This document shows positions 24 to 61,043 of a stretch of DNA of 64,000 bases, piece after piece. Both the position numbers and the translations under genes were made by a program. The stretch comes from Candidatus Iainarchaeum sp. GTDB lineage: Archaea; Iainarchaeota; Iainarchaeia; Iainarchaeales; JAAZKV01. A model generated the notes under the pieces. That model searched no databases. It had not been told where the DNA came from and saw nothing but the letters and a program-made list of their open reading frames with translations. The stretch covers positions 128,001-192,000 of the forward strand of contig JAPLVR010000003.1 of assembly GCA_026397015.1 (NCBI GenBank), in the 5' to 3' direction. Every line of letters begins with the position of its first letter. Positions within the stretch are counted from its first letter, which is position 1.

Positions 24-3000
24 ATGCTCTGGCCGGACAGGCAGGCTGTTTTCAATATTACCGTAACAAAAAATATTCTTGGGCCTTCAATCGAAATGGG
101 CGGAGTCTACAATTCTGAGGGCGCGCAGGTTCAAACTCTCGAGGCGGGAAAAAAATATTATGCGAGGATGATTTTGAAGGCGGACAACGAATACTCAAAC
201 GTGCTGATGCATTTCAGGGCGGGCGAAGAAAACCATTTGGACAACGATTTCATCGAAATTGAAAAGGTAGAAGGAGCGGATGTTTATTCCGTTGCCCGCG
301 GCGCAACATACGACCCCGAACAGGGCTATTCATATGATTCGCAAAATCTTGTTGACGGGCCCGCGAAATGGATTAATGCTGAGTGGAGGAACAAAAACTT
401 CGGGGAAGGCGTGCGCGAAGTAAATGTTTGGTTCAGGGTAAAAGATGAAACGCCGCCGAACCAGAAACTAAAATTATTTTGGAGGGCATTGTTCGACAGC
501 AAGAGGCTGCCTGAAAGCAATATTCCGGAAGAATTTTATTCGGACACATACAGCGCCACATACTACGAAGGATTTTCGGAAACATGCGACACGGAATTTT
601 GCTTTACGTCGGAATGGCTTTACTCCCAGAAAGACGAATTATACATGAACCAGCCTTACGCGTTGAGGCAGGTTTTGAAGTACGATTACCACTTCCAAAT
701 CATAAATAACTCACAGTACGATTACATGAAAGGAAAAAAGCCGATTTACATGTACGTTGAAATTGTGGGCGATGAACAGGGCGAGAGAAGGATAAGGATT
801 GAGGATTACAAAATAAAGGACGCGCTCGGAATAGTCGACAGCAATGTTGAAGTGTTTGAAATAAGAAGGGTCGAGTTAAACTCATTCGACAAAAAAACTT
901 CTATTGATACGACAATGACGCTGATGGGATTAAGCGAGGGCGCGGAAACAATAAGGGTAAGGCTTCAATCCGAAGGGGTGGAAATTTTTTCAAAAGACAT
1001 TTCATTCACGATTCCGACTGAAAAGGAAATGAAGGTAACGGTAAAGCCTGATTTTATTCCGGCGCTGAGCAACACGCCGATTGAAGTTGAAGTGAAGGAC
1101 AACAAAAACGCGCCGCTGAGGGATGCGAGCGTAAAGCTGAAAATAAAGGAGCCCGGATTCGAGGAAATAATATTTGACGAGGCGAAAACAGACAGATATG
1201 GAAAAGCAATCGTAAATTCCGGCATGCATTATCCAAACACAACTCTTGTAATTGAAGTGCAAAAGGAAGGGTTCGCGATAAGCACAACAGAGCTCATTGT
1301 TTCCGACAAGGTCGTTGAATTCGAGCCGGCGGAAGCGAGCATTGAATTAAACACCGTAACGAAAAGGGAGGAAACGAAAAGCGTAAAAATAAAAAATCTC
1401 ACGATGAACGACTTCTCGATAAAGGGAATAACATTGGATGCAAAATTCGCCGGGCTGATAAATGAAAATGCATTAAACGCGTGGCTCGAAGAGCTCTCGG
1501 GAGAAATAATTGCAGGGGATGATACGACAGAATTGGATTTGTTAAAAATAAGGCTGGCAAACGACATTACGCCGGAAAATTTCATTGAGCCTGCTTCGAT
1601 TGACGGAACTATTTTGGTTTCATTCGAAGTAAAGGAAACAGGCGCGGCGTACGATGTGGAATTGCCTCTGAAACTCGGCATCAGTTCGGATGCAACGGTT
1701 GAGGACGGATGCATACTCGTCGATAATGCGACACAGTCAAAGGTTACACAGCAGGGGCGCGTAAGCTTTTCATTTGTTTTAACGAACGCCTGCAAATCTG
1801 AAGATGTTGCAATAGGATTGGAAAGTTTGAAGGCGAGCGCCGGTGGCGAAATCAAGGGGCTCACGGAACTTTCACTACAAAGCCTTGGCGGCGGAACAAC
1901 GGGGAGAACGGCGCTCGACCAGACACAGAGAATTACTTTCGGCAGGGTTTCGCCCGGAGAAAAAATTGCAGGAACTGTTACTTATGTTCCGTCGATGGAT
2001 GCGGCAGGGAGTTCAGTAACAATAATAGTTGCAATCGAGGGCGCCTATGCGGGAAAAAAACTGAAAACAAATCCGGCGGCTTTGAATTTTACCGTAGATG
2101 TAATTAATTTGAAGGAGTGCATGAGCATAAGCAGCAACCCCGGGCCGGTTGAATTTGACGCCTCAACAACGGTAACTGTCGACGCTTCCGGATGCCCGAA
2201 ACAACAGATTGATGTTATTTTATGCAAAGGGGATTCAGGATGCTCCGGCGGCGCGGAAGGCTCGATAAATTTGAGCAAGAAAAGTTTTACACTGAAAGAA
2301 AATTCTGAAACCATTACCGTTTCTTCTCCTTCGATTGCCGGCGCTTACGGCGTAACTGTTCATGCAAGGGCGAAAGGAAGCGGCTCCTACATTTATATCG
2401 GGGAAGTTCCTGTTTCATTTAACCCGTCGGAAGGAAAATATTTCAAGCTTAACAAATACGAATTAAATTTGTATGGGAAGGGTTCAAAGGACGCAGTAAT
2501 TCTTACAAACAAATTGCTTTTGGAAAGCGTTGACGTAAAGGCGGACGAATGCGCATGGGGCAAACAGGACGCCGGATTCGATTGGGCGAGCGGGCTGGTC
2601 GGCGCGGGCATCGGTGCAGGGCTGGCATATATGGTTACAGGCGCACTCCCAATGTCAACGATTTATGGTGGGGGATGGATTTCCGGAGGATTAATAATAG
2701 GCGCAGGAATAGCGGGATTGCTGATTGGCGGCAACATGGGTTATGAATGCGCGGACCATTACCAGGTAAATCCGATGAATGATTTCATAATATTTTTACA
2801 GGGAGATACGATAAATATCAACGGAGAAGAAAAGCAAATTCCCGGAGATGCGGGGGCGCTGGGTTTCAGCGTTCCGAAAATAGGGGCGGGCTGGAACTTT
2901 GAAGATGCGGAATATTCAGCCGAAGAAACTGTCGGAATAACTTTTTCAAATTCGGGGCTCAATGACCCGAAACCGAAATACGGATTGCTTACAATCAACG

Positions 3001-5315
3001 CGACCGAGCACGTGCACGGGGATCCGTTGCACACAAAAAGATTGGGCGGAGCAATCGGGGGAGCGGCTTCTACCCCGGTCGGAACAGGAACGCCCACTGG
3101 CACAGGCACTGCTACCGGGACAGGTGGAGCATCAACAAGCCCTGCAAATAATTTGACAACGAAAGCAAAGAAGGCATCATTCATACTTGGGATGGGCGAA
3201 GGCACGGACAATGGAGAAACTTTGCAAGGAGATGTAGATTGTAAAAGTGACACTTTCGGAAAATATTGGATTGGCGCGGGAGAAGACCAGGGAGCATGCG
3301 AAGGGGCAGCGGACAACGATTATTCCCAGCAATTCAGAATGAGGGTTTTGAGCGGCGAGGCTGTTGACCAGGACGCATATTTGAAGAAGGCGACAAGCTG
3401 CTACAACGGAGCAGTTGCCGGCTCAACCGGAAAGGATGCCGTTCCAAGGATAAAATTGAATTGGGAATGGACTAACATAAAGAGCGATTCTTGTGATTAC
3501 GGCAACAATGATTACATTTACTGCGATGCTTCACAGTTCAGCATTGAGGTTTCGAAAAAACTTGCGATACTTGCGGATTTCTTCAACAAAAATCCGAGTT
3601 TCCAGTGTCCCCCGGATCCTGCGGAGAAGGAAATAAAGGAACAAACCGAAATCATAAACGGAAAGCCGGCGAGCGTTGCTGGAGGAAGCATTGGAGTAAA
3701 AGAAATTTCTGCCTTGGTGGACCCTAGCACTGACAATACAAAAATAACTGTAAGCGTGGAAAACAAAACATCCACTTCCGCCTCTGCAACAATAAATATG
3801 ATAGTGCGCGGAAAAACAAATTCCCCTCCGGTTACGCACCAGCAAACATTCGCAGTAGGAGTAACAACTGTTGAATTTACGGCAATAACACAGAAATACA
3901 ACGGGCCTTACTTCGTTTCTGCGGCTGTAAGCGGCGCCCTCTCCAACAATCAAAGCGTTACAAGAATTTTCACAAACAGAGATACGCCAAGCGGCTGCTG
4001 GCTTGACCCGAGCACAAAAATGGTCGGAGGAAAACCCGCGATATTTTACTACATTGACACTAATAATATCGGAAGCGTTGTTTGGACCGAAAAAATAACT
4101 AATTTAGAGGCGCTGCACAATGCGCTGCTGTTCAAGGCATACCTGATAAAGGACGGTTATGGGGAAACTTTTAGAAAAGACTTCAGGGATTATTATTTGA
4201 AAACTTTCCTGCAGGCGCCGGTAACAACGGAAGAAAAAAGCATAGTGGAAAACTTTGATTCGGGCAAATTTTCATTCAAGAAAAAATACCTGAACAGTTC
4301 GGATGTTGAAGCAGGATTGTATGAAGTAAGATTCAATATTGATTCAAATGAAACCTTCAGAATACTGAGGGCGGATGGAACGCTAAACGGAAATGTCGGA
4401 GTGGAATTGCTTTTGGTAAAGAAGCCGCCAATAGAATACCCGTTTTACAGCATTCCTTTCGACGGTGTGCTTGGAAAAGAAAACGGAAGAACAGGATACG
4501 GTTCGGTGTATAACAATGAAAATGGCGAGCTCTTATTCGGGGGGGAAGCAAGCACATTTGAAAGCGCAAGCGGAAACGGAATTGTAAATGTGAAGACAAG
4601 GGTCCCGAACGATTTGGCTTCGCTGACTTCATTTGCGAGCACCAGAGGGCAATTGCTTTCAGCCGCAGCATCCGGCGGAAATGCGGAAATAATATTTTCT
4701 CCAAATTACGCGACGCCTGTAATCGGAAAATACTCATTGAACGAAGGCACTTCCGGAATATTCGGATTCACCGTAAATCAGGGAGGAACTCCGAAGGCAA
4801 CGGGCGGCAACATGACATACTGGACAGGCGCAGCAAAGAGCAAAAGCTTCGACGGAGGGAACGCTGTTCAGGTTTACAATGATACCCCCGATTACCAGAT
4901 GGATGAAACGAGCGGAGTTTCACAGCCGAACGTTACATACGGGTTCAAATGGGATGAAGCTTCAATTGGCGGAACGATTTACCTAAAAACAATAATTTAT
5001 ACGCCCATAAACGAAGTGTACAGCATAATCGGCGAATCAGGCACCGAGTTCTGGACCCCGGACAGCGAGTTCTCCGGAAATGTGGAACTTTCGGGAATAA
5101 GCGGGATGCAATACAACAGCAGACAGGGCGGAGGAAAAATAAGAACGCTTGAAGAAATTTTCGATCTCGTGAAAAAGGAAAAGGTTTGCGTAACAAATAA
5201 CGGAAGCAACGCTTCCTTCTGGTGGAATCCGAAAACAATTGCAACCTCGGTCGGCAGCGCGGGCAACAGCGTTGAAACGAAAGAGGATTTTCTCGGCGGA
5301 AGCGCTTTAAAGTAA
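24..5315 (+). CDS. Giant Cys-containing, beta-rich putative surface protein (paralog A); 5' end probably lies before the window
   Basis: 1763-aa ORF; the frame is open back to the window start (SYTSAPV before M). Ig-like low-complexity stretches. C-terminal blocks are shared with 20162..26947 and 55518..61043 (SC..G..G..GK...P...L.W.W, PFDG..G, LE..F.....VC.......WN). Confidence 0.85.
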   Translation: MLWPDRQAVFNITVTKNILGPSIEMGGVYNSEGAQVQTLEAGKKYYARMILKADNEYSNVLMHFRAGEENHLDNDFIEIEKVEGADVYSVARGATYDPEQGYSYDSQNLVDGPAKWINAEWRNKNFGEGVREVNVWFRVKDETPPNQKLKLFWRALFDSKRLPESNIPEEFYSDTYSATYYEGFSETCDTEFCFTSEWLYSQKDELYMNQPYALRQVLKYDYHFQIINNSQYDYMKGKKPIYMYVEIVGDEQGERRIRIEDYKIKDALGIVDSNVEVFEIRRVELNSFDKKTSIDTTMTLMGLSEGAETIRVRLQSEGVEIFSKDISFTIPTEKEMKVTVKPDFIPALSNTPIEVEVKDNKNAPLRDASVKLKIKEPGFEEIIFDEAKTDRYGKAIVNSGMHYPNTTLVIEVQKEGFAISTTELIVSDKVVEFEPAEASIELNTVTKREETKSVKIKNLTMNDFSIKGITLDAKFAGLINENALNAWLEELSGEIIAGDDTTELDLLKIRLANDITPENFIEPASIDGTILVSFEVKETGAAYDVELPLKLGISSDATVEDGCILVDNATQSKVTQQGRVSFSFVLTNACKSEDVAIGLESLKASAGGEIKGLTELSLQSLGGGTTGRTALDQTQRITFGRVSPGEKIAGTVTYVPSMDAAGSSVTIIVAIEGAYAGKKLKTNPAALNFTVDVINLKECMSISSNPGPVEFDASTTVTVDASGCPKQQIDVILCKGDSGCSGGAEGSINLSKKSFTLKENSETITVSSPSIAGAYGVTVHARAKGSGSYIYIGEVPVSFNPSEGKYFKLNKYELNLYGKGSKDAVILTNKLLLESVDVKADECAWGKQDAGFDWASGLVGAGIGAGLAYMVTGALPMSTIYGGGWISGGLIIGAGIAGLLIGGNMGYECADHYQVNPMNDFIIFLQGDTININGEEKQIPGDAGALGFSVPKIGAGWNFEDAEYSAEETVGITFSNSGLNDPKPKYGLLTINATEHVHGDPLHTKRLGGAIGGAASTPVGTGTPTGTGTATGTGGASTSPANNLTTKAKKASFILGMGEGTDNGETLQGDVDCKSDTFGKYWIGAGEDQGACEGAADNDYSQQFRMRVLSGEAVDQDAYLKKATSCYNGAVAGSTGKDAVPRIKLNWEWTNIKSDSCDYGNNDYIYCDASQFSIEVSKKLAILADFFNKNPSFQCPPDPAEKEIKEQTEIINGKPASVAGGSIGVKEISALVDPSTDNTKITVSVENKTSTSASATINMIVRGKTNSPPVTHQQTFAVGVTTVEFTAITQKYNGPYFVSAAVSGALSNNQSVTRIFTNRDTPSGCWLDPSTKMVGGKPAIFYYIDTNNIGSVVWTEKITNLEALHNALLFKAYLIKDGYGETFRKDFRDYYLKTFLQAPVTTEEKSIVENFDSGKFSFKKKYLNSSDVEAGLYEVRFNIDSNETFRILRADGTLNGNVGVELLLVKKPPIEYPFYSIPFDGVLGKENGRTGYGSVYNNENGELLFGGEASTFESASGNGIVNVKTRVPNDLASLTSFASTRGQLLSAAASGGNAEIIFSPNYATPVIGKYSLNEGTSGIFGFTVNQGGTPKATGGNMTYWTGAAKSKSFDGGNAVQVYNDTPDYQMDETSGVSQPNVTYGFKWDEASIGGTIYLKTIIYTPINEVYSIIGESGTEFWTPDSEFSGNVELSGISGMQYNSRQGGGKIRTLEEIFDLVKKEKVCVTNNGSNASFWWNPKTIATSVGSAGNSVETKEDFLGGSALK

Positions 5316-5408: not shown

Positions 5409-5846
5409 ATGTTTGAACCTACAATGCTGGCGCTGCCTGTTTCGCTCTTCATCTTGAGCTTTGGGGAACTCGCAATTGACTTGAACATAGTGCTCAAAAT
5501 ATTTGTGATGATGACAATAATTTCTTATATTACGCAGCACCTCGGGAGGGGCCCGCTCGCGGTTCTCCTGATACTCGGAATAAGCTGGTTCGTGCTATTT
5601 GATTACTGGAAATTTTTCGGCGGAATATATGTTTTATATGTTTTGGTAACATTCGGGGCAGCCTCAATCCTGATTGACTTCTTCTTTGTAAGCGGGGGGC
5701 AGCAGCCGCCGCAGGGAATGGAACAGGAACAAGCGGAAGGAGGCATCTCACACGGACTGGATTTCCAAAAAAGAAACGCGACATTCGTTCACGCAAGGCA
5801 AAGCGTCGCGCAAAACATGCTTAGAAGAAGGGGGCCGATGGGCTAA
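5409..5846 (+). CDS. Small multi-pass membrane protein (TFG-motif paralog 1)
   Basis: 145 aa, several hydrophobic segments, polar C-tail. Confidence 0.8.
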   Translation: MFEPTMLALPVSLFILSFGELAIDLNIVLKIFVMMTIISYITQHLGRGPLAVLLILGISWFVLFDYWKFFGGIYVLYVLVTFGAASILIDFFFVSGGQQPPQGMEQEQAEGGISHGLDFQKRNATFVHARQSVAQNMLRRRGPMG

Positions 5847-7548: not shown

Positions 7549-7553
7549 GTTAA

Positions 7554-20161: not shown

Positions 20162-23100
20162 ATGGGAATTTACTCTGGTTTGGAGGGCAAATGGTACGAT
20201 ACTGTTGACAGCCTCGGCTTGGGCGGCATAATAGACAAAATTGATTCCATTGTACCGAGTTTTATGCTTTTCATCGGAATAATTTTAATTCTCGTAATTT
20301 TTTTAATAACCACTCTCATCACTTCCGGACCGCGAAATTTTGACGCAGAAATACTTGTAACTTCAAGCGACGGTGGAAAACCGATAGGCGGGGCTGAAAT
20401 AACTCTTAGCGCAGAATGCCTTGAAAAACAAGGACTGACTAACAGCGGAAGTACGGATAATGAGGGAAAACTCACATTGACAATCTGCAACTCGGATTTA
20501 TTTTCAGTAAGCGTTGCAAAAACTGGGTACCAAACTTATTCTGATAAAATCGCAATAATGGAAAGCACCCAAGTTCCGATAACGCTTGAAGAAACGATAA
20601 CACCGAAAGAATTCAACGCAAGAATCGTCGATGAATCCGATAAAATAATAAAGAACGCAAAGTTGCAGATGATTTGCGTTAATGACCCTAAAAACAAACT
20701 TGATTTGCCCGAAAAGGCAGGCGGAACACAGCCCGCCGACGGATTCACTTTCACACTAATATCAAATTGCAGCGAGATACAGTTGAATGCGAGCGCACAG
20801 GGATACATTGACGAAAAGGGAAAGGAAGTTTCGACAAAAACTGTTTCGCAGAGCGACGAACGATGGGCTTTCAAAATGAAGAAGAACGTTGCAACCGGAA
20901 ACGTTACTTTTGAAGTGCAAATGGACAATGAGCCCGCGGAAGGGGTCGACATTACACTTTCAACCGAAGAAAGATCGGCGATAAAAATGATTACTGATGA
21001 AAGCGGCGCGGCAACGACTTCACAGCCGATTCAGGCCGGCGATTACAGCTATGTTGCGATAGCAAAAAACGGCGCAGTAGACAGCAATTCTTTCACGCTC
21101 GGCGCAAATGAAAACAAAACAATAAAAATTTTCATGAAAAAGCCAAAGGACAAAAGCAAAATAAAACAGCTTTACCTGAAAATAAGCGATGAGGCGGGAA
21201 ACGCGGTTTCCAGCGCGAAATACTCTCTCTTCAAAATGCCGGACGGAAACCTTTTCATCGAAGAAAATTCAAACGCGAACGGGCTGGTGCAGCGGACAAT
21301 TCCGGACGGAAATTATTTCGTTGCCGTGAAAAAAATAGGCTACCAAACTGCAATTGTGGAGGTTGCGCTGAAAAATGATGGCGAAGAGCCACAACAGATT
21401 CTTTTGAGCCAGGGCGGCGCCACAATAAAAACACACGTCATCGACGAAACAAAGGCGGGAATAAAAGGCGCGAACATTACACTCAGGATTGCGGGATTCT
21501 CGGGCGTGCTGGAAAAAGTTTTGAGCGACAGCAACGGCACATATGAGTTCAGGGGACTGCCGCCGGGAGATTACACCATAAAAGTTTCAACAGAAAGCGC
21601 ACAGGGCGAAGGAACTGTTTCCGTCGCAACCAACCAGTCAAAAGAAATCACAATTTCTCTTACCATAAGCGAGGGAAAAATTGCTTTCAACTTGTCGGGC
21701 GCGGATGGAACAAAAATAAACGCAAATTACCAGCTCTACGTCAGAAACGGGGCGAGCGGAAACTTTGTGAAACAATCCGAAGGGGTAACGACAAAAAATG
21801 TGTTCGATACTGGAATGCTGAAATACGGCACGGAAGTGAAGGCAATTGTTGGCGGGGGAACATACATTCCCTACGAGACAATGGTTTACAAGATTCAAAA
21901 GACGACTGCGACTTCGCCTGTAAATATTTTTATCGAATTAAGGACTTTGAGCGGCCTGCCGAACCCAAACAATGTGCAAATGTTCCTGACGGACATTTAT
22001 GAAACAAGCCCGCTGGCTGGCGGAAAGTCAAAGCCGGCAAGCGTCGACAAAATACTTGCGGGAAAAAATTACCATATGCTTTTTGATTTGGTTCTGTTGG
22101 ACGGAAATGACACTACAACAATCACAAACTTTTTTGTCGGGCCGAAAGACCAGGCGGGGCTCCTCACAAAAAACCCTTTCATAATAAACGGCGCGTATTC
22201 AATTGAGGGGGCAGTAACTGTTTTATCAAACGTTCACGAGGCTTTCGAAATTCCAAACAACCAAAATATTGTTGACACGGGGGCGAAACAGGGGAATGTG
22301 CTGCTGGGCAAAAAAAGCGGTCCGATTACGATTCCTGTTGTTTTAGTTGTGCAGACAGATTTGAATGCAGAGGGGAAAGAAAAAATATTTTACGAAGCAA
22401 AATTCGGAGACCGGCAAAGCCTCCAATACTCAAAAGAATTTGAATTCGGGAAAAAGTTTTGCACCAAAAACTGCCCGGCTTTTTTGATTTCAAGCTATCT
22501 CAAAACAGGGGGCGGAAATTATGAGCCGATAAGCGACTCGAACAAACCGATCCTTTACATCGGGGAGAGCTACAAATTGAAAACGATTGTCGAAAATTTA
22601 TTGGAAGAGGATATAGGCACGCCGAACTTAATAGTCGAAAGCAAAACAAAAACAGGCAACGAATATGCAATAGTATTCCCGGTTGGGGGCGACTCAAACT
22701 CGGATTCAAATGCGGCAGTTGCCTCGATTACGCTTGCGCCGCTTTCAACTTCCACGCCCGCCGAATTCAATGTAAAACCCAATAAAACTTCGAGTTCGGC
22801 AAAGGTTGATGAATATCTGAGCAAACTTGTTGACGGAGTAAATGCGCTGAAAAAATATGATGGAAGCAGCGTTTCAATGAGCGTTCAGGTGAAAGAGAAA
22901 AGCGGAATCGAAATTTCGATAAGCCCCGAAAGAATTGATTCGGGGGAAGAGTATCCTCTCTTTGTAGTCAAGGCAAAAGGAACGACAACAAAGAAGGGAG
23001 TTCCGGCGAGCATTTATTATTCGGTTGAGGGCGGCGGCATGATTTACATGGGAACGGCCGATGAGAACGGGCTGCTGATAAGCGAGTTCAGCGCGGTAAA

Positions 23101-26100
23101 TTTGGGCGCGAACACGAAAGTGCTTTTCACCGCGGAAAAATCTGGAATGGTTTCTGGAACAAAAGAAATAATTATAAGCGCACCTTATTCCCCAATTCCG
23201 GGTGAACCGGTAGAGCCGGAGTGCCTTGCGATAAGCGCGGACGCAAACAAGGCGCTGAACATAAGCATCAACGGAACGGGAACATTCGGTTTAACTTCAA
23301 CATGCACGGAAGCGCGGAGAATTTATCTTCAGACTGATTTGCCGGTGAGCAAAAAAATAGTCGACCTTGCGCCCGGAGGAAGCGAAACAATAAAGGTAAC
23401 TGCGGCGCCGCGCGACGGACTGCTCGGGATTTATCCCGTACAAGTGTTGGCAATAAAGGGGGCCAAATACAGGCAGCTCGGAATAGTGGATGTTGTGATA
23501 AACGATCCGAATTCCTGCTTCGAGATTTCCAAAACGGCTTTTGATTTCAAAAATGAGGATACCGTTTCAGGAACGATAACAAACAAATGTTTTGCGGGAA
23601 GAAAAGACAATTTTAATCCGCAGATGAATGTTCAGACGAACAGCGTTTCGCTCGAATATGACAAGCCGGGAATACCTGAAAAAATCACTTCAAAAGTGAG
23701 TGTCATGGGAATGGCGCCCGAAGGTTATTTTAGCGGACTTATGAAATCAAATATTCATTTCGCCGCGGACATTGAGTGCGAAGGGGCAATTGATATTCCT
23801 GAAACACCTGAAGCTGCGCTGGAAGGGCCGATGGAAGAAGCTGCGGGCACATGCGAAGGACAGGCGCAAAAAATGAATGAGTTGAGAAATAAGAAGACAC
23901 CAAAACCCGAACCAGATTTGAACGAAACAAAAGTCACACCTGACAAGGTTTTGCAGCCTTCAGAAGTAAAATCAATCACCGGCCCAGCTTCGGAAATAAT
24001 CCCATCGACCCCTGCAGCTGCAAAAACAAGTTCGGGAGGATTTGCCCCGCCAAGCGAAATCTCGAAAATCAAAAAATTAAGTTTCCAGGAAGAGGGAGGA
24101 GATGGCGAGGGAGAAGGAGAAGGGATGCCTTCAGAAGAAGGGGAGGGAGGAGCGCCTACCGAGGGAGAAGGGCCTCCTGAAGGATCGGAAAGCTGCGCTG
24201 TTATTCCAAGCGGAAGCACGGTTGATTACATTTATTCATGGTATACTGACCCTTACTGCGGCGGAGGATACGGTGCGTTCCGCCCGAAAGAACCGGATGG
24301 AGATGAATTTGGTTCCGGCCCATGGTGGAAATTAAGGGGGGAAGGGATAGAAGGATCAACAGCGGTATATGAAGTTTTGGAGGCAGGTGGCCCAGATACA
24401 ACACATGAAGTAGCCATAGCAGAGAGATTCGGAGAAGGCGGTGCTGGAATGTACTACCAATTATTGGTTCAAAGCGAAGGATCCGGAGGGTGGGGGAGCA
24501 GCTTCTGTCATGGCGCGTACTTAAAAATACAAAACGACTGGTTCTCAATGTATGAAAATATTTCCGGAAGATACAATACTGTAACAAAAGAATTCACTCT
24601 TGTTCCGATTGAAGGAAAGGCATATCCTTTGGGGTCGTATAGCGAGGCGACGCCAATGCCTGCATGGATGGGGGACATGAAACCTTATGAGCATTCACAA
24701 GGGGATTCATGGACACTCAGCGAAAACGCCGGCAGTTCGCTTTACACCCTCGTCTGCGGATTTGGTGAAGGATTCTTAGACCCGGAATATGCCGCCAGCG
24801 TAACAAAGTCGGATGCGGATAAAACACCAAACATTCTTACAAGAGTTTGGTTTGTGTTTGATGCAAATCATCCTCACGTTGAATTTGATTCATCCGGAAA
24901 AATACAATATTTCCTTTACACCGAAGAAATGATGAAATATGGGGAAGCATATATTAAAAGCCTTGTAAATTACAACGGGATTCCTCCGGAGCCGGACAAA
25001 GACGGCTTGAGGTACTTCCTCAAAAATCACCAAATATGGGCGGAGTATGTTGGAAAGCCGACCATTGCAAGCAACGTAATCAATTTTTCACTCACAAACA
25101 ACAATCTGCTCGGAGATGAATACTCTATTCTCACTGTGAAGGACTGGATAAACGGAACGGAAAAAGAAAAGAAGGCGTTCCAAATAAAACTTTCAGGAAA
25201 CCCTTCGAGCTGTTATTCGAGCGACGGCACAATCGGCGCAACGGGAAAAGGATTTTCGCCAAAACTTTTATTTGACTGGGATTGGGCGAATATTCCTGAA
25301 AACCAATGCGATTCTTCAAATGAAGATTACACCTATTGCGACGGAACGCAATTTACAACAGCGCTCTTCAAAAAACTTTACAAGATAGACGAGTACACTA
25401 CAAAAGGAAAAATCGAGGAGCTGCCGACAATAACGGCGTTCTATTCATACCTAATAAAGGACAACTACACAAAAGAATTCTTGGGCGATTTCAGCGAATA
25501 CTATTCGAACACGCTCGCAAACGCGGACACGAAATTTACCGGCACTTACAACAAGTTCATAACACAAAACAAAATAAAATTCACACTTGACGACAGCGGC
25601 GGACCGGGCAGCGCCTGTGAAGAAAGCGCAACCGGAATTCCCGAAACAATAAATATTCTGCCAGGAAGCCCCGCCACACAATTTTTCGCCCTGCCAAACG
25701 AAGTAAGCCACGCGAACATCGTAAAATTCAAGGCAACGGACAACGAAAAGTGCGCAACAGCAGAAATAAGGCTCGGGGGAAGCGGCGAATGGATTGATTT
25801 GGGCGATGTTGGAACGCCTGCGGCTGAAAAAGAATTCAACTTGGGAAAAGACTACGGGCCAGTAAGGGCAGTAGAAGTGAGGGTAAAGGAAAAAGAAAGC
25901 GAGCCGTCCTGCGGAACGGAAAGCGTTGCAATTGAATCAATAAAGGTCGGAGGAAACTGTGCAAGCGGCGGACAGGAAGGAGGCAATCTTCCAAGCGGCG
26001 GCCTTTACAGAATAACAATCGATTACAATTTGCTGGACCCGAGTTTGAGAAGCCTGCTTGATAAGGGCGAGCCGAACGCATCAATAAATGTGAAATTCAA

Positions 26101-26947
26101 ATTAATCCAGCCCGCGCCGAACTACAATCCGTTCTATGAAACGCCGTTTGACGGGGAAGTCGGAAAAAAGAACGACCAATTTGTGAGGCACAACTACGGG
26201 GTAAGCGTGGACAGCCCCGGCACGGAAACCCTGAAATTGAATTCGAATGTGAGTTCGGCAAAATACTCCGGAGCGATGGACACAATAACACATACAACCA
26301 CAAAAGACCTTGCAAAGCTTGACAAGCAAATAATCCTTACTTACAACAAAGAAAAGAAAACACTTGAATTTAATCCAGCACAGCCAACCCCGGTAATATT
26401 TGAAATAAAAGCCGATGCCGACAGGGTAGATGCGCAATACACGCTGAGCGGAAGCATAAGCGGAACGCTGCCTTCAAAAAAATGGAGAATGGTTTATTCC
26501 AACATAGGGAAGAAAGAATGCTACGACTTTTCAGACCAGCACAAAGTGGTTTTCAACGACAGGGAAATTGCGCCGAACAAAAGGGGGCTGGCATGGGATG
26601 TCAGGAAAAAAGGGACAATCGGACTCGGAACGACCTTCTTTACGCCGAAAGCAACCGACATAAGAATAGCGCCTATTCCGGGAAGAGGGGGAAAAATAAT
26701 AGGGTTTGAACAGCTAACAAATGCGGATGCAATAACACTGAATTACTTTGATGCGGCGGCTACAACAGAATATGATTCGCTGGAAAAGCTGTTCAAAATG
26801 ATTGACAACAAACAGGTTTGCGTTTCAACCGGCTCAAGCTCCGAAGTGAAAATATGGTGGAACCCCGAATACCTTGACGGACTGGCTTCGCAAATCAACG
26901 CCGGCACAGGATACACATGCAACCAAGAACAAGCCGGTGCAAAATAA
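20162..26947 (+). CDS. Giant membrane-anchored putative surface protein (paralog B) with carboxypeptidase-regulatory/Ig-like repeats
   Basis: 2261 aa; N-terminal TM (FMLFIGIILILVIFLI); repeated ..GA.I.L....TD..G....L..G.Y units; shared C-terminal scaffold. Confidence 0.88.
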   Translation: MGIYSGLEGKWYDTVDSLGLGGIIDKIDSIVPSFMLFIGIILILVIFLITTLITSGPRNFDAEILVTSSDGGKPIGGAEITLSAECLEKQGLTNSGSTDNEGKLTLTICNSDLFSVSVAKTGYQTYSDKIAIMESTQVPITLEETITPKEFNARIVDESDKIIKNAKLQMICVNDPKNKLDLPEKAGGTQPADGFTFTLISNCSEIQLNASAQGYIDEKGKEVSTKTVSQSDERWAFKMKKNVATGNVTFEVQMDNEPAEGVDITLSTEERSAIKMITDESGAATTSQPIQAGDYSYVAIAKNGAVDSNSFTLGANENKTIKIFMKKPKDKSKIKQLYLKISDEAGNAVSSAKYSLFKMPDGNLFIEENSNANGLVQRTIPDGNYFVAVKKIGYQTAIVEVALKNDGEEPQQILLSQGGATIKTHVIDETKAGIKGANITLRIAGFSGVLEKVLSDSNGTYEFRGLPPGDYTIKVSTESAQGEGTVSVATNQSKEITISLTISEGKIAFNLSGADGTKINANYQLYVRNGASGNFVKQSEGVTTKNVFDTGMLKYGTEVKAIVGGGTYIPYETMVYKIQKTTATSPVNIFIELRTLSGLPNPNNVQMFLTDIYETSPLAGGKSKPASVDKILAGKNYHMLFDLVLLDGNDTTTITNFFVGPKDQAGLLTKNPFIINGAYSIEGAVTVLSNVHEAFEIPNNQNIVDTGAKQGNVLLGKKSGPITIPVVLVVQTDLNAEGKEKIFYEAKFGDRQSLQYSKEFEFGKKFCTKNCPAFLISSYLKTGGGNYEPISDSNKPILYIGESYKLKTIVENLLEEDIGTPNLIVESKTKTGNEYAIVFPVGGDSNSDSNAAVASITLAPLSTSTPAEFNVKPNKTSSSAKVDEYLSKLVDGVNALKKYDGSSVSMSVQVKEKSGIEISISPERIDSGEEYPLFVVKAKGTTTKKGVPASIYYSVEGGGMIYMGTADENGLLISEFSAVNLGANTKVLFTAEKSGMVSGTKEIIISAPYSPIPGEPVEPECLAISADANKALNISINGTGTFGLTSTCTEARRIYLQTDLPVSKKIVDLAPGGSETIKVTAAPRDGLLGIYPVQVLAIKGAKYRQLGIVDVVINDPNSCFEISKTAFDFKNEDTVSGTITNKCFAGRKDNFNPQMNVQTNSVSLEYDKPGIPEKITSKVSVMGMAPEGYFSGLMKSNIHFAADIECEGAIDIPETPEAALEGPMEEAAGTCEGQAQKMNELRNKKTPKPEPDLNETKVTPDKVLQPSEVKSITGPASEIIPSTPAAAKTSSGGFAPPSEISKIKKLSFQEEGGDGEGEGEGMPSEEGEGGAPTEGEGPPEGSESCAVIPSGSTVDYIYSWYTDPYCGGGYGAFRPKEPDGDEFGSGPWWKLRGEGIEGSTAVYEVLEAGGPDTTHEVAIAERFGEGGAGMYYQLLVQSEGSGGWGSSFCHGAYLKIQNDWFSMYENISGRYNTVTKEFTLVPIEGKAYPLGSYSEATPMPAWMGDMKPYEHSQGDSWTLSENAGSSLYTLVCGFGEGFLDPEYAASVTKSDADKTPNILTRVWFVFDANHPHVEFDSSGKIQYFLYTEEMMKYGEAYIKSLVNYNGIPPEPDKDGLRYFLKNHQIWAEYVGKPTIASNVINFSLTNNNLLGDEYSILTVKDWINGTEKEKKAFQIKLSGNPSSCYSSDGTIGATGKGFSPKLLFDWDWANIPENQCDSSNEDYTYCDGTQFTTALFKKLYKIDEYTTKGKIEELPTITAFYSYLIKDNYTKEFLGDFSEYYSNTLANADTKFTGTYNKFITQNKIKFTLDDSGGPGSACEESATGIPETINILPGSPATQFFALPNEVSHANIVKFKATDNEKCATAEIRLGGSGEWIDLGDVGTPAAEKEFNLGKDYGPVRAVEVRVKEKESEPSCGTESVAIESIKVGGNCASGGQEGGNLPSGGLYRITIDYNLLDPSLRSLLDKGEPNASINVKFKLIQPAPNYNPFYETPFDGEVGKKNDQFVRHNYGVSVDSPGTETLKLNSNVSSAKYSGAMDTITHTTTKDLAKLDKQIILTYNKEKKTLEFNPAQPTPVIFEIKADADRVDAQYTLSGSISGTLPSKKWRMVYSNIGKKECYDFSDQHKVVFNDREIAPNKRGLAWDVRKKGTIGLGTTFFTPKATDIRIAPIPGRGGKIIGFEQLTNADAITLNYFDAAATTEYDSLEKLFKMIDNKQVCVSTGSSSEVKIWWNPEYLDGLASQINAGTGYTCNQEQAGAK

Positions 26948-47330: not shown

Positions 47331-47331
47331 A

Positions 47332-47817: not shown

Positions 47818-47900
47818 TTTGATTCACCTCGAGACACCCTGACTTTTGGTCGCTTTATAAAGAAGAGCATTATAAAAAAACTTCGACCAGTCAATGAGTT

Positions 47901-55517: not shown

Positions 55518-58500
55518 TTATTTTATGCAGCCGGCTGAGAGCGAATCTTCCCTTGAGGAGAGGCTGTGCCCGTTGGAGGCATCAGCAGTTGAAAGGCTTC
55601 CTTCGTTCCAGAACAGCATTGCGCGGTTGCCCATATTCGAAATGCAGACATCGCCCTGTTTAACTGCATCGAACAAATCTTCAAGGCTAAAAATGCGGGA
55701 ATTGTTTGTCTCGTCGTTGAAAACCATTCCGCCAATTCCCTTAAGCGGAGCGGAATTTGCGTTGCTTCCCTGAAGAGTATGAAGCGAGGTTCCCTGAATC
55801 GGCTGAATCGAATATGATTCAGAAACTGGGGAATAAATGATTGTCTTGAAATAAATGTCGCCGCCCTGAACAGCCTCATCAAATTTGAGCCCGTAATATC
55901 CTCCAAACTTGGAATCCGGATAAAGGAAATAATTCTTTGCTGCGGAAGTTCCTGAAAAGTCCCTGCATTTTCCATTGCCGATTCCGGTTAAAAGCAAAAA
56001 GCCGGGGCTTGTTGAATTAATGTCTTTTGAGTCGCGCATGGGCTTGTAAAGCAGCTGCGCCTTTTCTCCCGAATTTGCGTGCGTTGAAACTATCAGCGGC
56101 GTTGCAAAAGAGGGTGCAAATGTTATGTATGAATTCGCATCGGTGCCGCCCTTCGGGTTGTACGCATACTTGTAATCAAAAAGCTTTCCTCTCATCGAAT
56201 TTAGGCTGTTTATTTCGAAAAGGCTTTTCGCGTTGCGGTAAGGAATATTCAAAAGGGCTGTTGAGCCTGATTCAATTATGCTTCCCTTATTGTCAACATT
56301 GAAATAATCGTCATTCCCGCCGGAAATTCCGAATCCGTAGCCGTCGCGCTTTGAAACGCCGCCAACAACTACAATTCCGTTTTTATCCGTTCCCGGAGAA
56401 TTTTGGTCCGCGACACCCGGCGAATTTGCGTCATAAACATTTCCATCCTCTGGGATAACATCTGTGGAACTTTCCATTCCTACTGCACCGTCAAAAGGGG
56501 AATAATAGAAGACGCTAAAAGAATCGTTGATTGGCTTTACAGGATAGAGTTGGAAAATTATTTTTGCGCTTGGCGCTCCTGAAGAAAAGAGCCCAGTGTC
56601 TTTCAAATCGGCAAGCAGTCTCACACTGTATTCTCCCGCATCGGGAACAACAAATCTGTCCGAAGCAGAGAAACCCGCGGCTTCTGAACTGTAATAACAA
56701 TTTGCACCCCTAAAATATTTTGCCATCCCCTTGTCGGAATCCGTAAATGAGGGGTGCGAAAGCAGTATTTTTGTAGTGTATTCTTTCGTGAAATCCTGCT
56801 GGAATTTTGTCCCGAAACCATCCTTCATCAATTTGACGTTGAAATTCAAAATCTTTTCAAATTCGTCTGCATTGCCTGAAACGAAATAATACAGCGCGGG
56901 CTTGCCGTCGTACAAGCGGGTGGTAAGAGGGAGGTAACACTTCGGCAAATCTTTTGGTAAGTATTCACTCGGCTTTACGATTTGCAGCACTTCAAGAGAA
57001 GGATTTGGCGGACAGGAAGCGGAAATGCTTTTCAGCGCCTCATCAAATGCGGTAAGTTTTTTGCTCAAAACAATTGACATTTGGGCGGCGTCCAAATACT
57101 TTGAATCATCAAACCCATCCCATTTCCACGAGAGATTTATATTCGGGAGGGCGTCCTTTCCTTCCGCGCCCCTAGTTAAACCGTTTGAACAGCTGCCAAG
57201 TTTCAATCCTGTTGCGGCTTCAACCCTTGGCGCAGCATTAAATTTGAAATGGAATTTTTTTGAAACGGTTTCGGTCGAGGCATCCGGAATATTGAAAGGG
57301 CCGAAAGGCTGGCCGTCAATTTTCACAATTTCGCCGCCTTCTTCATTACCGCTGCTTTTTGGTTTCTCTTTCACAGTAGTTACGGTAAGTCCTGAATCAT
57401 CGCCTTCTGTTGAAGAAGAAGTGCTTGAATCTGCGCCGTTTCCATCAGTGCTTTCTGCCAGCGGACCGTGAATGTGCTTCGTTGCATTCAAAGTAACTGT
57501 CCCGTAACCGTTTTTCACCAAACCATTATTTGAGAAAATTACGCCGACTTCCTGCTTCTCAAAAACATCAAACATTTTCGCATCGCTGAAACTCCAAGTC
57601 GCGCCGACGCCCTCATTTGAAACCCCTATCGGCTTGCCGTCCTTCACCAAATTAATTACGTAATCAGTTAAACCCAAATCAATTCTGTTGGCGCAATCCT
57701 GAGTAAAAGACTTGTTTAATCCTTCTGTGAAATTGGCCGCCTCATCCTCTGCGCTTGTTGAATCACTGCTGCCGGAATCGCCCGCAAGCAAAATTTTATT
57801 TGAATTAAATTTATTAGTTTGGGAAGAGGTGCCTATGTTGCCGGTATTCAAGCCTGTGCCCGTTCCGGTTAAAGCCGTTCCGGTGTCCGCGGTCGTGTAA
57901 ACGCCGCCTTCATATGCGCCTGCGATGTAGCCGTGCGAAACTGCGGAAGCGATTAAACCAGCCAATCTTTTTTTGTTGTAAGAAGAATCCGCGAAGTTGG
58001 CGCTGGAATAAGTTGCAGCATCACTTGAAGCTTTTTCATCATTTGAAAGCTCGCCCGCCGCAATTATTGCCGCATCAAGAGAATCAATTGCTTTTTGCTG
58101 CACATCAATCACATCTCCATAAGTTGAAATCGTTGATTCATACGCCGATTTGGCGCCGTCAATGTCTGCGCCGGTATCTTTCATCATATTTAAAAATACT
58201 GCAAATACGTCTCCTGCTGTAACAAGAATATCCAAGGTGCTTGTCACCATTTCAAGTGTTAAGCCACTGCTAATCGAAGCAAGTTTCGTCCTTAAAGCAG
58301 GATCAGAACCACCAACACCTGTGATTAAAAGACACTTCGCATATGCCGCCGCACACTTTTCGTCGCCGCTGCACTTTAAACATTCTGTCGCAATAACAGT
58401 AATTCCTCCGGTTCCGGTAGCCACTACCATTTCTGCTTGGGCACTCCCAATAGCGGTATGTGCAGTGTAAAGTTCAGACAATCTCGCCACATACAACACC

Positions 58501-61043
58501 GTTGTAATGTGCGAAAGCCCATCAATAACATCAATAATTTCACTTTTTCCGAATTCATTGGTTTCTTCCAAATCATCAAGCGCATCCGTTGCCGAATTCA
58601 AGCTTTCAGTTGCCGCTTCCAAATTTGCTATTGTTTCTTCGTGTGCGCCCTTTGCCATTTCCAAATATTTTTTAGCATCCGCATCATCGCTTGATGCAGA
58701 GTAGAAAGCATCAATTGCAGCAGCTTCCAATGCTTTTTGGGCATAATTTACAGCATTTTTGGAACTTTCAACTGCCGCATTGGCGGATTCCAACGAAGCC
58801 TTTGCAAATTCTAATGTTTCATCCGCACTTGCTTTTCCGTCCCCCTCAGACAATGTCATCACTGAATCTACTGCTTGCATCATGCTCGTAACACTATCAA
58901 GAATTAACAAAAAACCTTCAAAATAACTTATTTCATATGCGGTTTTTGCAGTGACATATGAAGAAGCGACTTTGCCAGCAGCTGGAATTGCAATCAGTGT
59001 GCCGGCTGTTGCAGCAGATGGCCCACAAACCGAACCTGCAATAGCCGCCGCAGTTACAGAAGCAACGTACATGTTTACTGCATAATCCCCTCCAGTGAAC
59101 AATCCCCAGTTCACAACACAAACAGCTCCTTGAGCGGTTAACTCCGTAAGCGCCAATGTTAACTGAACTGTCGCAACCGTCTTCCCGTAATCCGTTCCTT
59201 CCCCAAATGAATCAACTGCAGCTTGCGCAGCATCGACAGCGGATTGCGCGGCATCTTTTACTTTGAGGGCTTCCTCATGAGCTTTTATTGAATCCAAATA
59301 AGCTTTTTTTATCAAAGCATTTCGCGGAGCGGAAAACGCCTGCGCCGTTGCGCGCGCCTCATCAATTTGCTTCAGAGTTTCTGTCAGGGACGCCTGATAT
59401 TTTCCGACGCCTGCTTCTTTTCCTAAGTTGTTCCACCAGCCGCTTCCACCGGTGGAAGTGTCTTTTGATGTGCTTGAACTATTTACATCAGTAGAACCGC
59501 TTCCGCCTGAATTTGAATCAGCGGACAATGCTTCGCCTGCATTTGCATAAATGTCGCAGATGCTTGCATTCACATGAACGTCTTCCGCAAGAGTCGGGTT
59601 GGAGACGCGAATGGAATCTTTCGTGCCATTTCCAAGCAGAGAAATCACAAACTTATCGGGCTTAAGCATCTCATCGCTTGGCTCAACAAAAACTTCTTTT
59701 TCCGCAATGAATGCTTTTTTGTAGCCGACAATGTTTGCGTGAACTGTTAAGCCGTAAACGCCCGGAATTTCTCCTTTTGTAATCATAATTGTTTTTTTGG
59801 AATTGCCGCGGGGGGAAAGGCTGAATGAAGCCGGAGAAATGTCAATTGAGCCCTCGCTCGCGCCGCCGGTGCACCCATCATCGCCGTCGCAGATATAGAA
59901 CGCTATTGAGTCGGAGCTGCAGGCGGAAGCGTCAATTGTAATTTCCGCGCTTTCTTCGCCCTTCGGAATAACTAATTCTGATTTTGAAAACTTTACGCAC
60001 TGCTCTAAATTGTCCAATGCAACATCAAAATTAATTCCGACTCCGTTTTGGTCCGAGCCGAACATCACCGAAAAATTTGCTTTCTGCCCCGCATACTCGA
60101 CAAAAGGGGTAAAAATTATTTTTGCGGGGTAATCGCTTTTCGTAGCGGAATTTGTTAAAAGCGCCGGAGAAAGGGAGAGCGTTCTTCCCATTAATTCTCC
60201 TTTCTTATCCGCCATAACCACCTCGACTGTCCCCATTTGTTTGCTGTTCCATTTTACGTAAGCATTCAAATCCGCCTTTGTGTCGCAACTTACTTTAAGT
60301 TTGAAATCCGTTTCGAGCATTCCGAAGGGAGTTGATTCTCTCACCGAACTTTTGTTGAGCGCGAGGCAGCCGTTTGAAAAGTAATCTTTTATTGTCACGT
60401 GGACAGGAATCGTTATTATTGTTGTTTCATTCGTATCGGGATTGAGAACGGTAATTAGAACATTGACATCGTATTCTCCGGGCGGCAATCCTTCGGGAGG
60501 AAAGAGGTCAAAGGAAATCCTTCCATTCGCATCCACAGCAGCATTTTCAACCAGCCACACTATTTTGCCGTCGGTGCTTTTTCCCTCCGCCTTAACTATT
60601 ATTGAATTTGGGGAAACCAGCGGCTCGCCCTTGATGCGCAGGGAAACTCTTGCGGAGGAATCGCCTGAAACCATAACTGCTTCCAACGGCGGGCCTTTTG
60701 AATTAATTGTTTTGTCTGCCTTTCCGTCCTGGAAATGCTGAATCGTTCCGGCAACATCATTTCCTGAGTCGTCGGTAAACGAGTATGCACCCGAACCGGA
60801 AAAATTTCCCGGATTCATTAAAACGAGCAAAATTATTATTGCGACAACGATTGCAACAGGAACGATAAGCTGATTTCTTTTATCTTCCAAAAAAAATTCT
60901 AACTTGGTCAAAAGCCCTTCCTTTTCCGCGCTTTCTTCCTCTTCATCGCCGTAAAAAGAGGGTTTGTATTCTCTGGGCGAATAGTCTTCTTCAATGTCAC
61001 CATAATAACTATCAGAACCCTTTGAGCGCTTTTTTGAAGCCAT
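55518..61043 (-). CDS. Giant membrane-anchored putative surface protein (paralog C) with large Ala-rich helical insert
   Basis: ORF track extends to 61079; likely start MASKK at 61043; N-terminal TM; collinear with paralog A apart from a 620-aa insert. Confidence 0.88.
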   Translation of the reverse strand: MASKKRSKGSDSYYGDIEEDYSPREYKPSFYGDEEEESAEKEGLLTKLEFFLEDKRNQLIVPVAIVVAIIILLVLMNPGNFSGSGAYSFTDDSGNDVAGTIQHFQDGKADKTINSKGPPLEAVMVSGDSSARVSLRIKGEPLVSPNSIIVKAEGKSTDGKIVWLVENAAVDANGRISFDLFPPEGLPPGEYDVNVLITVLNPDTNETTIITIPVHVTIKDYFSNGCLALNKSSVRESTPFGMLETDFKLKVSCDTKADLNAYVKWNSKQMGTVEVVMADKKGELMGRTLSLSPALLTNSATKSDYPAKIIFTPFVEYAGQKANFSVMFGSDQNGVGINFDVALDNLEQCVKFSKSELVIPKGEESAEITIDASACSSDSIAFYICDGDDGCTGGASEGSIDISPASFSLSPRGNSKKTIMITKGEIPGVYGLTVHANIVGYKKAFIAEKEVFVEPSDEMLKPDKFVISLLGNGTKDSIRVSNPTLAEDVHVNASICDIYANAGEALSADSNSGGSGSTDVNSSSTSKDTSTGGSGWWNNLGKEAGVGKYQASLTETLKQIDEARATAQAFSAPRNALIKKAYLDSIKAHEEALKVKDAAQSAVDAAQAAVDSFGEGTDYGKTVATVQLTLALTELTAQGAVCVVNWGLFTGGDYAVNMYVASVTAAAIAGSVCGPSAATAGTLIAIPAAGKVASSYVTAKTAYEISYFEGFLLILDSVTSMMQAVDSVMTLSEGDGKASADETLEFAKASLESANAAVESSKNAVNYAQKALEAAAIDAFYSASSDDADAKKYLEMAKGAHEETIANLEAATESLNSATDALDDLEETNEFGKSEIIDVIDGLSHITTVLYVARLSELYTAHTAIGSAQAEMVVATGTGGITVIATECLKCSGDEKCAAAYAKCLLITGVGGSDPALRTKLASISSGLTLEMVTSTLDILVTAGDVFAVFLNMMKDTGADIDGAKSAYESTISTYGDVIDVQQKAIDSLDAAIIAAGELSNDEKASSDAATYSSANFADSSYNKKRLAGLIASAVSHGYIAGAYEGGVYTTADTGTALTGTGTGLNTGNIGTSSQTNKFNSNKILLAGDSGSSDSTSAEDEAANFTEGLNKSFTQDCANRIDLGLTDYVINLVKDGKPIGVSNEGVGATWSFSDAKMFDVFEKQEVGVIFSNNGLVKNGYGTVTLNATKHIHGPLAESTDGNGADSSTSSSTEGDDSGLTVTTVKEKPKSSGNEEGGEIVKIDGQPFGPFNIPDASTETVSKKFHFKFNAAPRVEAATGLKLGSCSNGLTRGAEGKDALPNINLSWKWDGFDDSKYLDAAQMSIVLSKKLTAFDEALKSISASCPPNPSLEVLQIVKPSEYLPKDLPKCYLPLTTRLYDGKPALYYFVSGNADEFEKILNFNVKLMKDGFGTKFQQDFTKEYTTKILLSHPSFTDSDKGMAKYFRGANCYYSSEAAGFSASDRFVVPDAGEYSVRLLADLKDTGLFSSGAPSAKIIFQLYPVKPINDSFSVFYYSPFDGAVGMESSTDVIPEDGNVYDANSPGVADQNSPGTDKNGIVVVGGVSKRDGYGFGISGGNDDYFNVDNKGSIIESGSTALLNIPYRNAKSLFEINSLNSMRGKLFDYKYAYNPKGGTDANSYITFAPSFATPLIVSTHANSGEKAQLLYKPMRDSKDINSTSPGFLLLTGIGNGKCRDFSGTSAAKNYFLYPDSKFGGYYGLKFDEAVQGGDIYFKTIIYSPVSESYSIQPIQGTSLHTLQGSNANSAPLKGIGGMVFNDETNNSRIFSLEDLFDAVKQGDVCISNMGNRAMLFWNEGSLSTADASNGHSLSSREDSLSAGCIK

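Follow-up and report, generated by a model that had tools for sequence, protein, structure and literature searches.

The window analysed here, 64,000 nt of Candidatus Iainarchaeum sp. DNA (positions 128001-192000 of contig C5 in genome G000, an assembly of 898,628 bp in 6 contigs that is 85% complete), carries three genes for giant proteins, called A, B, and C in the following. They are members of an undescribed family of giant envelope proteins, multi-copy and spread across one order of the Iainarchaeota (DPANN). The parts of such a protein follow one another in the order of an N-terminal membrane anchor, a long run of immunoglobulin (Ig)-like domains, read as a stalk, and a head; in the head, PapD-like domains are followed by a cysteine-bracketed loop and then by the Cys-rich C-terminal scaffold (~800 aa). 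Tentatively, we read these as stalked surface proteins in which the loop equips the head with a membrane-active hairpin. The parts of A, B, and C are located as follows (window coordinates unless a contig is named).

1..5315, + strand: giant A (A-type), 3' 1763 codons plus stop; open reading frame (ORF) within the window 24..5315
2112..2546, + strand: PapD/MSP-like Ig domains of A, immediately ahead of the first bracketing Cys (AlphaFold 2 (AF2) and VIA-align)
2550..2750, + strand: Cys-bracketed loop of A, C843...C909 of the window ORF, an insert-free hairpin with hydrophobic segments 857-876 and 883-905
2760..3017, + strand: beta domain of A right behind the second Cys, with the conserved block WxF...TFxNxG...TxNATxHxHG (BLASTP, alignment A1, AF2)
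3042..3221, + strand: Gly/Thr-rich low-complexity linker of A (predicted local distance difference test score, pLDDT, <50)
3222..5312, + strand: Cys-rich C-terminal scaffold of A (alignment A1, profile search, AF2 with pLDDT mostly 85-96)
20162..26947, + strand: giant B (B-type), 2261 aa, with the N-terminal signature and anchor at 20225-20341 ahead of Ig-like and CarboxypepD_reg domains
23609..24841, + strand: acidic/Pro/Gly-rich stretch of B, then a Trp/Gly/Tyr-rich part, approximately residues 1150-1560 (limits approximate)
24842..26944, + strand: C-terminal scaffold of B (BLASTP, alignment A1, profile search)
55518..61079, - strand: giant C (C-type), 1853 aa from TTG 61079 or 1841 aa from ATG 61043
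60789-60884, - strand: membrane anchor of C
57693..59558, - strand: Cys-bracketed module of C, C508...C1129 (AF2: four very long helices of 125, 95, 105, and 80 residues)
58980..59132, - strand: distal tip 1 of the C helical stalk, hydrophobic, 2 Cys, replaced in a same-genus genome
58305..58424, - strand: distal tip 2 of the C helical stalk, hydrophobic, 4 Cys, replaced in a same-genus genome
55521..57692, - strand: post-module beta domain and C-terminal scaffold of C (BLASTP, alignment A1, profile search)
G000:C5:98219-133315 and window 20162-20341: N-terminal cytoplasmic signature of the giants

Paralogous giants in one genome

A first-pass annotation, made from the window sequence alone, had described A, B, and C as three giant paralogous surface proteins. 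The three ORFs are present at the positions given there, with the corrections that A is cut by the window edge and that C lies on the minus strand. Full-length A has 2345 aa, including the N-terminal signature and a membrane anchor, and starts at G000:C5:126278, 1,723 nt upstream of the window; C is recorded in databases in its 1841-aa ATG form (P0060). In BLASTP comparisons A and C align in three collinear blocks (E-values of 4e-44, 1e-26, and 3e-21), A and B match at 3e-13 and 7e-12, and B and C at 4e-7 and 3e-4. The collinear blocks common to the three are far above chance (4e-44 to 4e-7), and by sequence comparison A, B, and C are true paralogs. The blocks quoted in the annotation (SCY...G.TGK...W.W, KKL, PFDG, and the terminal LE..F...VC...WN) are conserved columns of alignment A1, which joins the scaffolds of five copies from this genome over 811 positions.

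The number of three was too low, as the genome has at least five scaffold-bearing copies, namely A, B, C, E, and an 893-aa protein. E (2726 aa) is encoded immediately upstream of A and is collinear with it over both halves (8e-82 and 2e-40). The 893-aa protein (G000:C5:314278-316959, minus strand) has no stalk and a signal peptide that looks cleavable; this copy may be secreted or have an anchor of its own. Its gene is found 1.7 kb from that of a 1472-aa giant having the N-terminal signature only. What the 1472-aa protein, D (2461 aa), and a 2984-aa protein have in common with the other giants is the N-terminal part or just its signature, not the scaffold: the similarity of D to A is confined to the N-terminal half of A, and the part that the 1472-aa protein has in common with the giants is limited to the N-terminal 55-60 residues.

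Six giants (the 2984-aa protein, D, E, A, B, and the 1472-aa protein) start with a cytoplasmic signature of approximately EDKWY...(I/V)DxIDxx(I/V)PSF that continues into the membrane helix, and this signature may be a sorting or docking signal for the giants. C lacks it and has a different N terminus. The N-terminal halves contain Ig-like domains according to Pfam (CarboxypepD_reg, Big_1, SpaA). By gene lengths, the five scaffold-bearing genes take up 3.4% of the assembly and all eight giants 5.7%. The genome also encodes other large exported proteins (1563 aa and 2097 aa) that have their signal at the N terminus and their anchor at the C terminus.

A family spread across one order

A protein search with the C-terminal 656 aa of A retrieved 55 proteins, the query included, with lengths of 1,428-3,126 aa, all of them unnamed or "hypothetical". 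In databases, relatives of the giants carry the labels Candidatus Diapherotrites, Candidatus Iainarchaeum, or "archaeon". For P0006, which is closest to A (69% identity), one source gives Candidatus Izemoplasmatales bacterium, probably a binning error in view of the distribution of the family. With the A1 profile, 759 cluster representatives among 1.84 billion were matched at an E-value of 1e-3 or below, and 466 at 1e-30 or below. When the scaffold profile was run over 201 genomes of the phylum, 179 were matched, all in the order to which this genome belongs (179/182). It matched none of the 19 genomes from five other families of the class, and full-length A as a query gave no match in 5 genomes of those sister families. 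Most matched genomes are multi-copy, and at least 30 have two matches 6-9 kb apart on one strand, like E followed by A in this genome.

The first-pass annotation did not recognise the family as a named one, and this view stands, as no Pfam, NCBIfam, or PDB counterpart came to light. Neither Pfam nor NCBIfam has a model covering the C-terminal scaffold, and a comparison of the scaffold profile with PDB sequences returned nothing significant (best E-value 0.48). Searches of the PubMed Central (PMC) Creative Commons literature and bioRxiv found no paper on the scaffold or the hairpin. The family represents a near-universal, multi-copy investment of a whole order, amounting here to 3.4-5.7% of a genome of ~0.9 Mb.

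A cysteine pair frames a natural insertion point

The bracketing cysteines of A and C had been noticed earlier, with 65 aa between them in the one and 620 aa in the other, and their positions were confirmed (C843-C909 in A and C508-C1129 in C). In a MAFFT alignment of 58 full-length homologs each bracketing Cys falls in a single column; both are present in 49 sequences, neither in 8, and one sequence is discordant (E, with the second Cys only). Hidden Markov models (HMMs) of the two boundaries were also run on 194 proteins, and both boundaries were recognised in 120 distinct proteins. The two cysteines are both present in 99 of these and both absent from 16; the remaining 5 are discordant, in part through alignment slips. 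The joint losses are scattered over several separate groups. Since the homologs are related by descent, these counts are not a formal test, but both samples (99/16/5 of 120 and 49/8/1 of 58) agree with the proposal that the two cysteines act as a pair.

The motif ahead of the first Cys has the form (V/I)x(V/I)xAxxC in 99 homologs, much as first described. The first Cys is followed by x-W-G (W in 73/99, G in 47/99) and then by a glycine-zipper helix; a second glycine-zipper helix and an acidic run precede the second Cys. Between the cysteines the loop varies from 21 to 899 aa, with a median of 266. The acidic/Pro/Gly/Trp-rich stretch of B does lie at about the same place (residues ~1150-1560), although the boundaries of B were missed by the boundary HMMs. 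The overall plan, a single scaffold that is conserved and a central module that differs from paralog to paralog, was borne out. An insertion point that tolerates from 21 to ~900 residues bears on how giant surface proteins diversify.

The loop ends are glycine-zipper helices

The loop had been taken as a display loop for variable payloads. This description falls short, because the loop ends are themselves conserved glycine-zipper or hydrophobic helices (79/120) and the loop of A consists of the hairpin only. A relaxed zipper motif is found at both loop ends in 79 of the 120 proteins and the strict GxxxGxxxG in 81. The density of zipper motifs at the loop ends is 33.3 per 1000 aa as compared with 3.8 in the rest of the same proteins, an 8.7-fold difference. 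The variable sequence lies between the two base helices, and in A and its same-genus counterpart the insert-free loop is a bare hairpin. Loops of 100 aa or less make up 42 of the 120, and most of them are plain hydrophobic helix-turn-helix elements with 19-residue Kyte-Doolittle means of up to 2.5-3.5; the few that lack such helices are short Trp-rich loops. Many short-loop homologs (P0033, P0037, P0039, P0075, P0125, P0138, P0180, and others) have CPPC or CPxC at the helix turn.

Charges were counted in the flanks of the helices in 35 loops. The base flanks hold 11.6 K+R vs 19.4 D+E per 100 residues at one helix and 7.8 vs 25.9 at the other, and the insert-side flanks 13.3 vs 12.8 and, before helix 2, 8.8 vs 2.9. 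In 22 of these 35 loops the insert is free of Cys; the outside domains have 0.93 Cys per 100 residues. A Pfam scan with an 81-aa hairpin query from A gave no family at an E-value of 5 or below, and among the glycine-zipper families of Pfam, searched in five full-length homologs, only PF13488 (Gly-zipper_Omp) appeared, in P0007 with 8.8 bits against a cut-off of 25.

Module types follow old subfamilies

For a phylogeny, 191 proteins were compared over their C-terminal 470 residues in a FastTree tree (LG model, midpoint rooting). It has an A clade of 32 tips with loops of 67-466 aa, a C clade of 18 tips with loops of 520-712 aa, a B clade of 4 tips, and an E clade of 44 tips, all with a support of 1.0. 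A further clade of 90 tips, mostly with short hairpins, has no member in this genome. Given these clades in the scaffold tree, the type of module goes with old subfamilies. The C module is recognisable in 14 further proteins (E-values of 1e-23 to 2.5e-42), and a search with this single query found it in 8/8 genomes of its own taxonomic family and in 0/93 genomes of the other families of the order. Modules related to that of B, which is acidic and without hydrophobic helices, occur in P0062, P0185, and P0163.

Comparison with a genome of the same genus (G036) gave overall identities of 68% for A, 67% for E, 65% for C, and 61% for B. The interior of the E module is only 17-28% identical per 60-residue window, as against ~62-90% for the flanks and base helices (~75% overall in the flanks). 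Most windows of the C stalk are 77-87% identical, but identity is only 30% and 46% in the windows that contain the two distal turns, where the alignment indicates replacement. The expectation of a loop that is hypervariable across relatives thus holds for the E module interior and the C tips, which are replaced within a genus, and fails for the module types, which are clade-specific and retained (C type in 8/8 vs 0/93).

Models of the head and of the C module

AF2 was applied to a 1076-aa fragment of A with a 51-row alignment and to an 856-aa fragment of C with a 19-row alignment (mean pLDDT 82.5 and 72.7). In the A model the hairpin (fragment residues 164-219) and the linker (320-379) have a pLDDT below 50, and the rest is mostly at 85-96. 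The strands stop two residues ahead of the first Cys and restart four residues past the second. The hairpin is unpacked in this monomer model, a result compatible with a requirement for a membrane or for partner chains. The PapD-like part (fragment residues 10-154) has a pLDDT mostly above 85 and is similar to PapD-like/MSP domains in VIA-align (Z 9.2-9.5); matches of the pre-loop domain to PapD/MSP-like Ig domains have a Z of 9-11.

Within the scaffold, only one Ig-like domain of ~100 aa (fragment residues 530-634) matches domain III of the class II fusogens HAP2/Fsx1 with a Z of 8.6-10.2, a level equalled by unrelated Ig/FnIII domains. The VIA-align list for the A model is filled by single Ig/FnIII domains and barely probed the C-terminal domain of ~430 aa, so that this domain cannot be called a new fold. 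A Foldseek search of the whole A model against the PDB was uninformative, with only multi-Ig proteins (CD109, alpha-2-macroglobulins, ciliary proteins) at a template modelling (TM) score of ~0.08. An alpha-2-macroglobulin reading was rejected on this TM score of ~0.08 and because the C[GL]EQ motif is found in 0/8 giants. B, D, the 2984-aa protein, and the majority of the homologs scanned have MG-type hits (bMG3, MG2) under the gathering score, and the only MG domain above it was MG4 in P0007 (26.6 bits vs 24.7).

For the C module the model predicts helices of 125, 53+41, 105, and 80 residues, with turns of low confidence where the hydrophobic segments with Cys lie. The longest helix, at 1.5 Å per residue, would be ~18-19 nm long. 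The best matches of the helical part are designed bundles and TTYH (Z 13-18), and six pore formers of the ClyA family are among the 50 best fold matches (Z 10.0-11.2). A profile of 19 C-like proteins gave weak coiled-coil matches among PDB sequences, the best being a designed SNARE (E-value 5.5e-4), and this search showed no sequence relation to the ClyA family. A Foldseek search against viral structures yielded nothing convincing (best E-value 7.5e-4, TM 0.10-0.16).

Genes next to the giants

Five genes for small, mutually dissimilar multi-pass membrane proteins come right after A, and Pfam has no family for any of them. In 3/3 other genomes examined with tblastn they follow an A-type giant in the same order (31-83% identity), and they probably form one unit with A.

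5409-5846, + strand: small multi-pass membrane protein, 145 aa
6022-6357, + strand: small multi-pass membrane protein, 111 aa
6450-6710, + strand: small multi-pass membrane protein, 86 aa
6809-7147, + strand: small multi-pass membrane protein, 112 aa
7147-7548, + strand: small multi-pass membrane protein, 133 aa

The region between B and C contains a probable integrated element, which also carries a DUF3800 protein. A free-standing LAGLIDADG-type ORF of 255 aa (53970-54737, minus strand) adjoins the 3' end of the C gene. Other genes of the window are archaeal (family B DNA polymerase, wyosine radical-SAM enzyme, UbiA prenyltransferase).

34763-48000: probable integrated element, G+C lower, 0.35-0.36 at 36-44 kb
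34763-35932: tyrosine integrase of the probable element
36173-37402: DNA methylase of the probable element
40398-41141, - strand: MvaI/BcnI-type restriction enzyme of the probable element
46254-47330, - strand: AAA_25 ATPase of the probable element

What the hairpin may do

The reading that we favour, and advance with caution, is that of a membrane-active hairpin. The two base helices would pair as an antiparallel hairpin whose register is kept by a disulfide at its base. As the membrane-active element of the head, the hairpin would dip into or cross a bilayer from the outside, most plausibly that of a partner cell, and it may self-associate through its GxxxG faces. The inserted modules could tune reach or specificity, and in C the predicted module would be a helical stalk of ~18-19 nm with Cys-bearing hydrophobic tips that differ from one close relative to the next. 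A platform in the membrane of the archaeon itself may be provided by the five small proteins encoded after A. We rank an insertion from outside, peripheral or re-entrant, first because it is the sole solution common to all members. The proposal offers a small testable element, the 65-aa hairpin between two co-varying cysteines.

Concerning the contact of DPANN archaea with other cells, the available parts of the literature show attachment structures and name few molecules. A bolder version of the proposal combines the Cys-clamped hairpin with hydrophobic-tipped stalks of the C type into a device that pierces or fuses with the partner membrane, lineage-specific modules setting the partner specificity. 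We regard this version as unlikely; if true, the device would be the first molecular candidate for the cytoplasmic bridges in DPANN-host pairs.

Several observations weigh against a hairpin that acts on the membrane of a partner. Many of the zipper helices are only marginally hydrophobic (19-residue means 0.9-1.7). A hydrophobic helix is found at one loop end only in E and at the base of neither B nor C, so membrane insertion is not a uniform property of the family. The charge pattern of the flanks is equally compatible with a hairpin across the cell's own membrane, and the Z-scores of the ClyA-family matches lie below ~13, a level that helical bundles reach through their arrangement alone. 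The introductions of two papers (PMC10936187, PMC5905446) mention a proposal that Iainarchaeota are free-living. No RNA run was listed with the C gene; the only runs with a full match were two freshwater-sediment DNA runs, which may be the source of the assembly.

An S-layer-like envelope is the next possibility, though a rather doubtful one. Here the paralogs would co-assemble through their C-terminal scaffolds into an outer canopy, with the hairpin and the C stalk as secondary anchors into the cell's own membrane. Coiled-coil stalks anchor some archaeal S-layers (SlaB, tetrabrachion), and the C stalk, at a predicted ~18-19 nm, would be within the range of a pseudoperiplasm. A structural layer would suit a family that is near-universal and multi-copy in its order (179/182), that has retained each of its ancient subfamilies (clades A, C, B, and E with support 1.0), that has five small membrane proteins conserved beside it, and whose giants occupy 3.4% of the genome as five scaffold copies and 5.7% with the three related giants. 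Neither the S-layer domain PF07752 nor S_layer_N (PF05123) is found in A, B, or C, and the whole genome likewise has no match to them, with positive Methanosarcina and Methanocaldococcus controls. The absence of such a match speaks for this explanation only weakly, because the assembly is 85% complete and Pfam has no family for many S-layer proteins. The exported proteins of 1563 aa and 2097 aa, on the other hand, fit the usual layout of an S-layer glycoprotein better than the giants do, and the within-genus replacement of the C tips and of the E module interior is seen more typically in exposed parts facing a partner than in a membrane anchor.

It is also unlikely, in our estimate, that the giants are passive adhesins, in which a Cys-closed loop merely presents variable binding modules and the Gly-rich helices are a stalk or an oligomer core with no role in a membrane. 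Ig-like stalks are typical of adhesins, the cysteines co-vary as a pair, and the modules are subfamily-specific and fast-evolving, that of B being acidic rather than hydrophobic. This explanation does not account well for A and the 42/120 homologs in which the hairpin is nearly all of the loop and is itself the conserved payload, nor for base helices that are better conserved than the modules they would serve, and in the monomer model the hairpin packs against nothing.

A three-pass topology, finally, is improbable. According to this explanation the hairpin of the two-helix paralogs spans the cell's own membrane, the module is cytoplasmic, and the two outside domains are tied by the disulfide at the outer face. 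The charge asymmetry in the 35 loops obeys the positive-inside rule, 22/35 inserts are Cys-free compared with 0.93 Cys per 100 residues in the outside domains, and the arms of the short loops have transmembrane length and high hydrophobicity. The topology cannot hold for E, B, C, and the Trp-rich short loops, however, because the homologous Cys-rich scaffold must stay outside in all of them. Furthermore, the Cys-rich modules (E and the C tips) and the CPPC turn point to an oxidising location outside the cell, and many zipper helices would be too weakly hydrophobic for an efficient stop-transfer.

Comparison with known systems

Adjacent, modestly hydrophobic GxxxGxxxG helices that enter a membrane after export are a feature of the bacterial lipoproteins SlyB and YfgH and of glycine-zipper membrane-damaging effectors. 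The giants resemble the SlyB/YfgH hairpins in having two adjacent helices with GxxxGxxxG-type motifs. They differ in that the hairpin is located inside a protein of 2,000 aa, is closed by a Cys pair, and can carry as much as ~900 aa of inserted sequence at its tip, and there is no significant profile match between them. The predicted C module resembles the ClyA family (HblL1 7nmq, YaxB 6ek8, Cry6Aa 5kuc, ClyA 6mrt, MakB 6w1w, and Hbl-B 2nrj) as a bundle of long helices with a hydrophobic far end, and Foldseek aligned it to HblL1 with an E-value of 4e-3. Unlike these secreted toxins, the module is inserted in a surface protein, and its helices are about twice as long.

Giant genes are known from other small genomes. 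In the host-associated bacterium Apilactobacillus kunkeei, Giant1-5 are consecutive genes for giant extracellular Ig-repeat proteins that take several percent of a small genome, as described in the part of the report at hand (PMC12863079). On that description the likeness lies in giant extracellular proteins that make up several percent of a small genome; the organisms and domains are unrelated, and the description mentions neither a central hairpin nor an insertion point.

Among the giant surface proteins of DPANN archaea, those studied best are the SPEARE proteins of the Nanohaloarchaeota. They are giant, mostly extracytoplasmic, and membrane-anchored, take up ~4% of the genome, and have been proposed to function in host contact (Hamm et al. 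2019, PMC6642349, as excerpted). Giant size, membrane anchoring, and a DPANN origin are shared with the proteins studied here. The excerpt gives the SPEARE proteins serine protease, laminin-G, and restriction-endonuclease domains and mostly a C-terminal anchor, whereas A, B, and C are anchored N-terminally. Pfam detected no serine protease, laminin-G, or type III restriction enzyme domain in A, B, and C at an E-value of 0.1 or below, and none of the SPEARE domains in E, D, the 2984-aa protein, and full-length A at 1e-3 or below.

According to the excerpted text of Probst & Banfield (2018, PMC5905446), a 42-kb region of Candidatus Forterrea multitransposorum encodes five membrane-anchored proteins of >1,800 aa, which take up ~5% of its genome and for which a role in cell-cell interaction was proposed. 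Likened by this description only, it shares with the present genome its place in the Diapherotrites/Iainarchaeota, the tiny genome size, and the clustering of giant membrane-anchored proteins.

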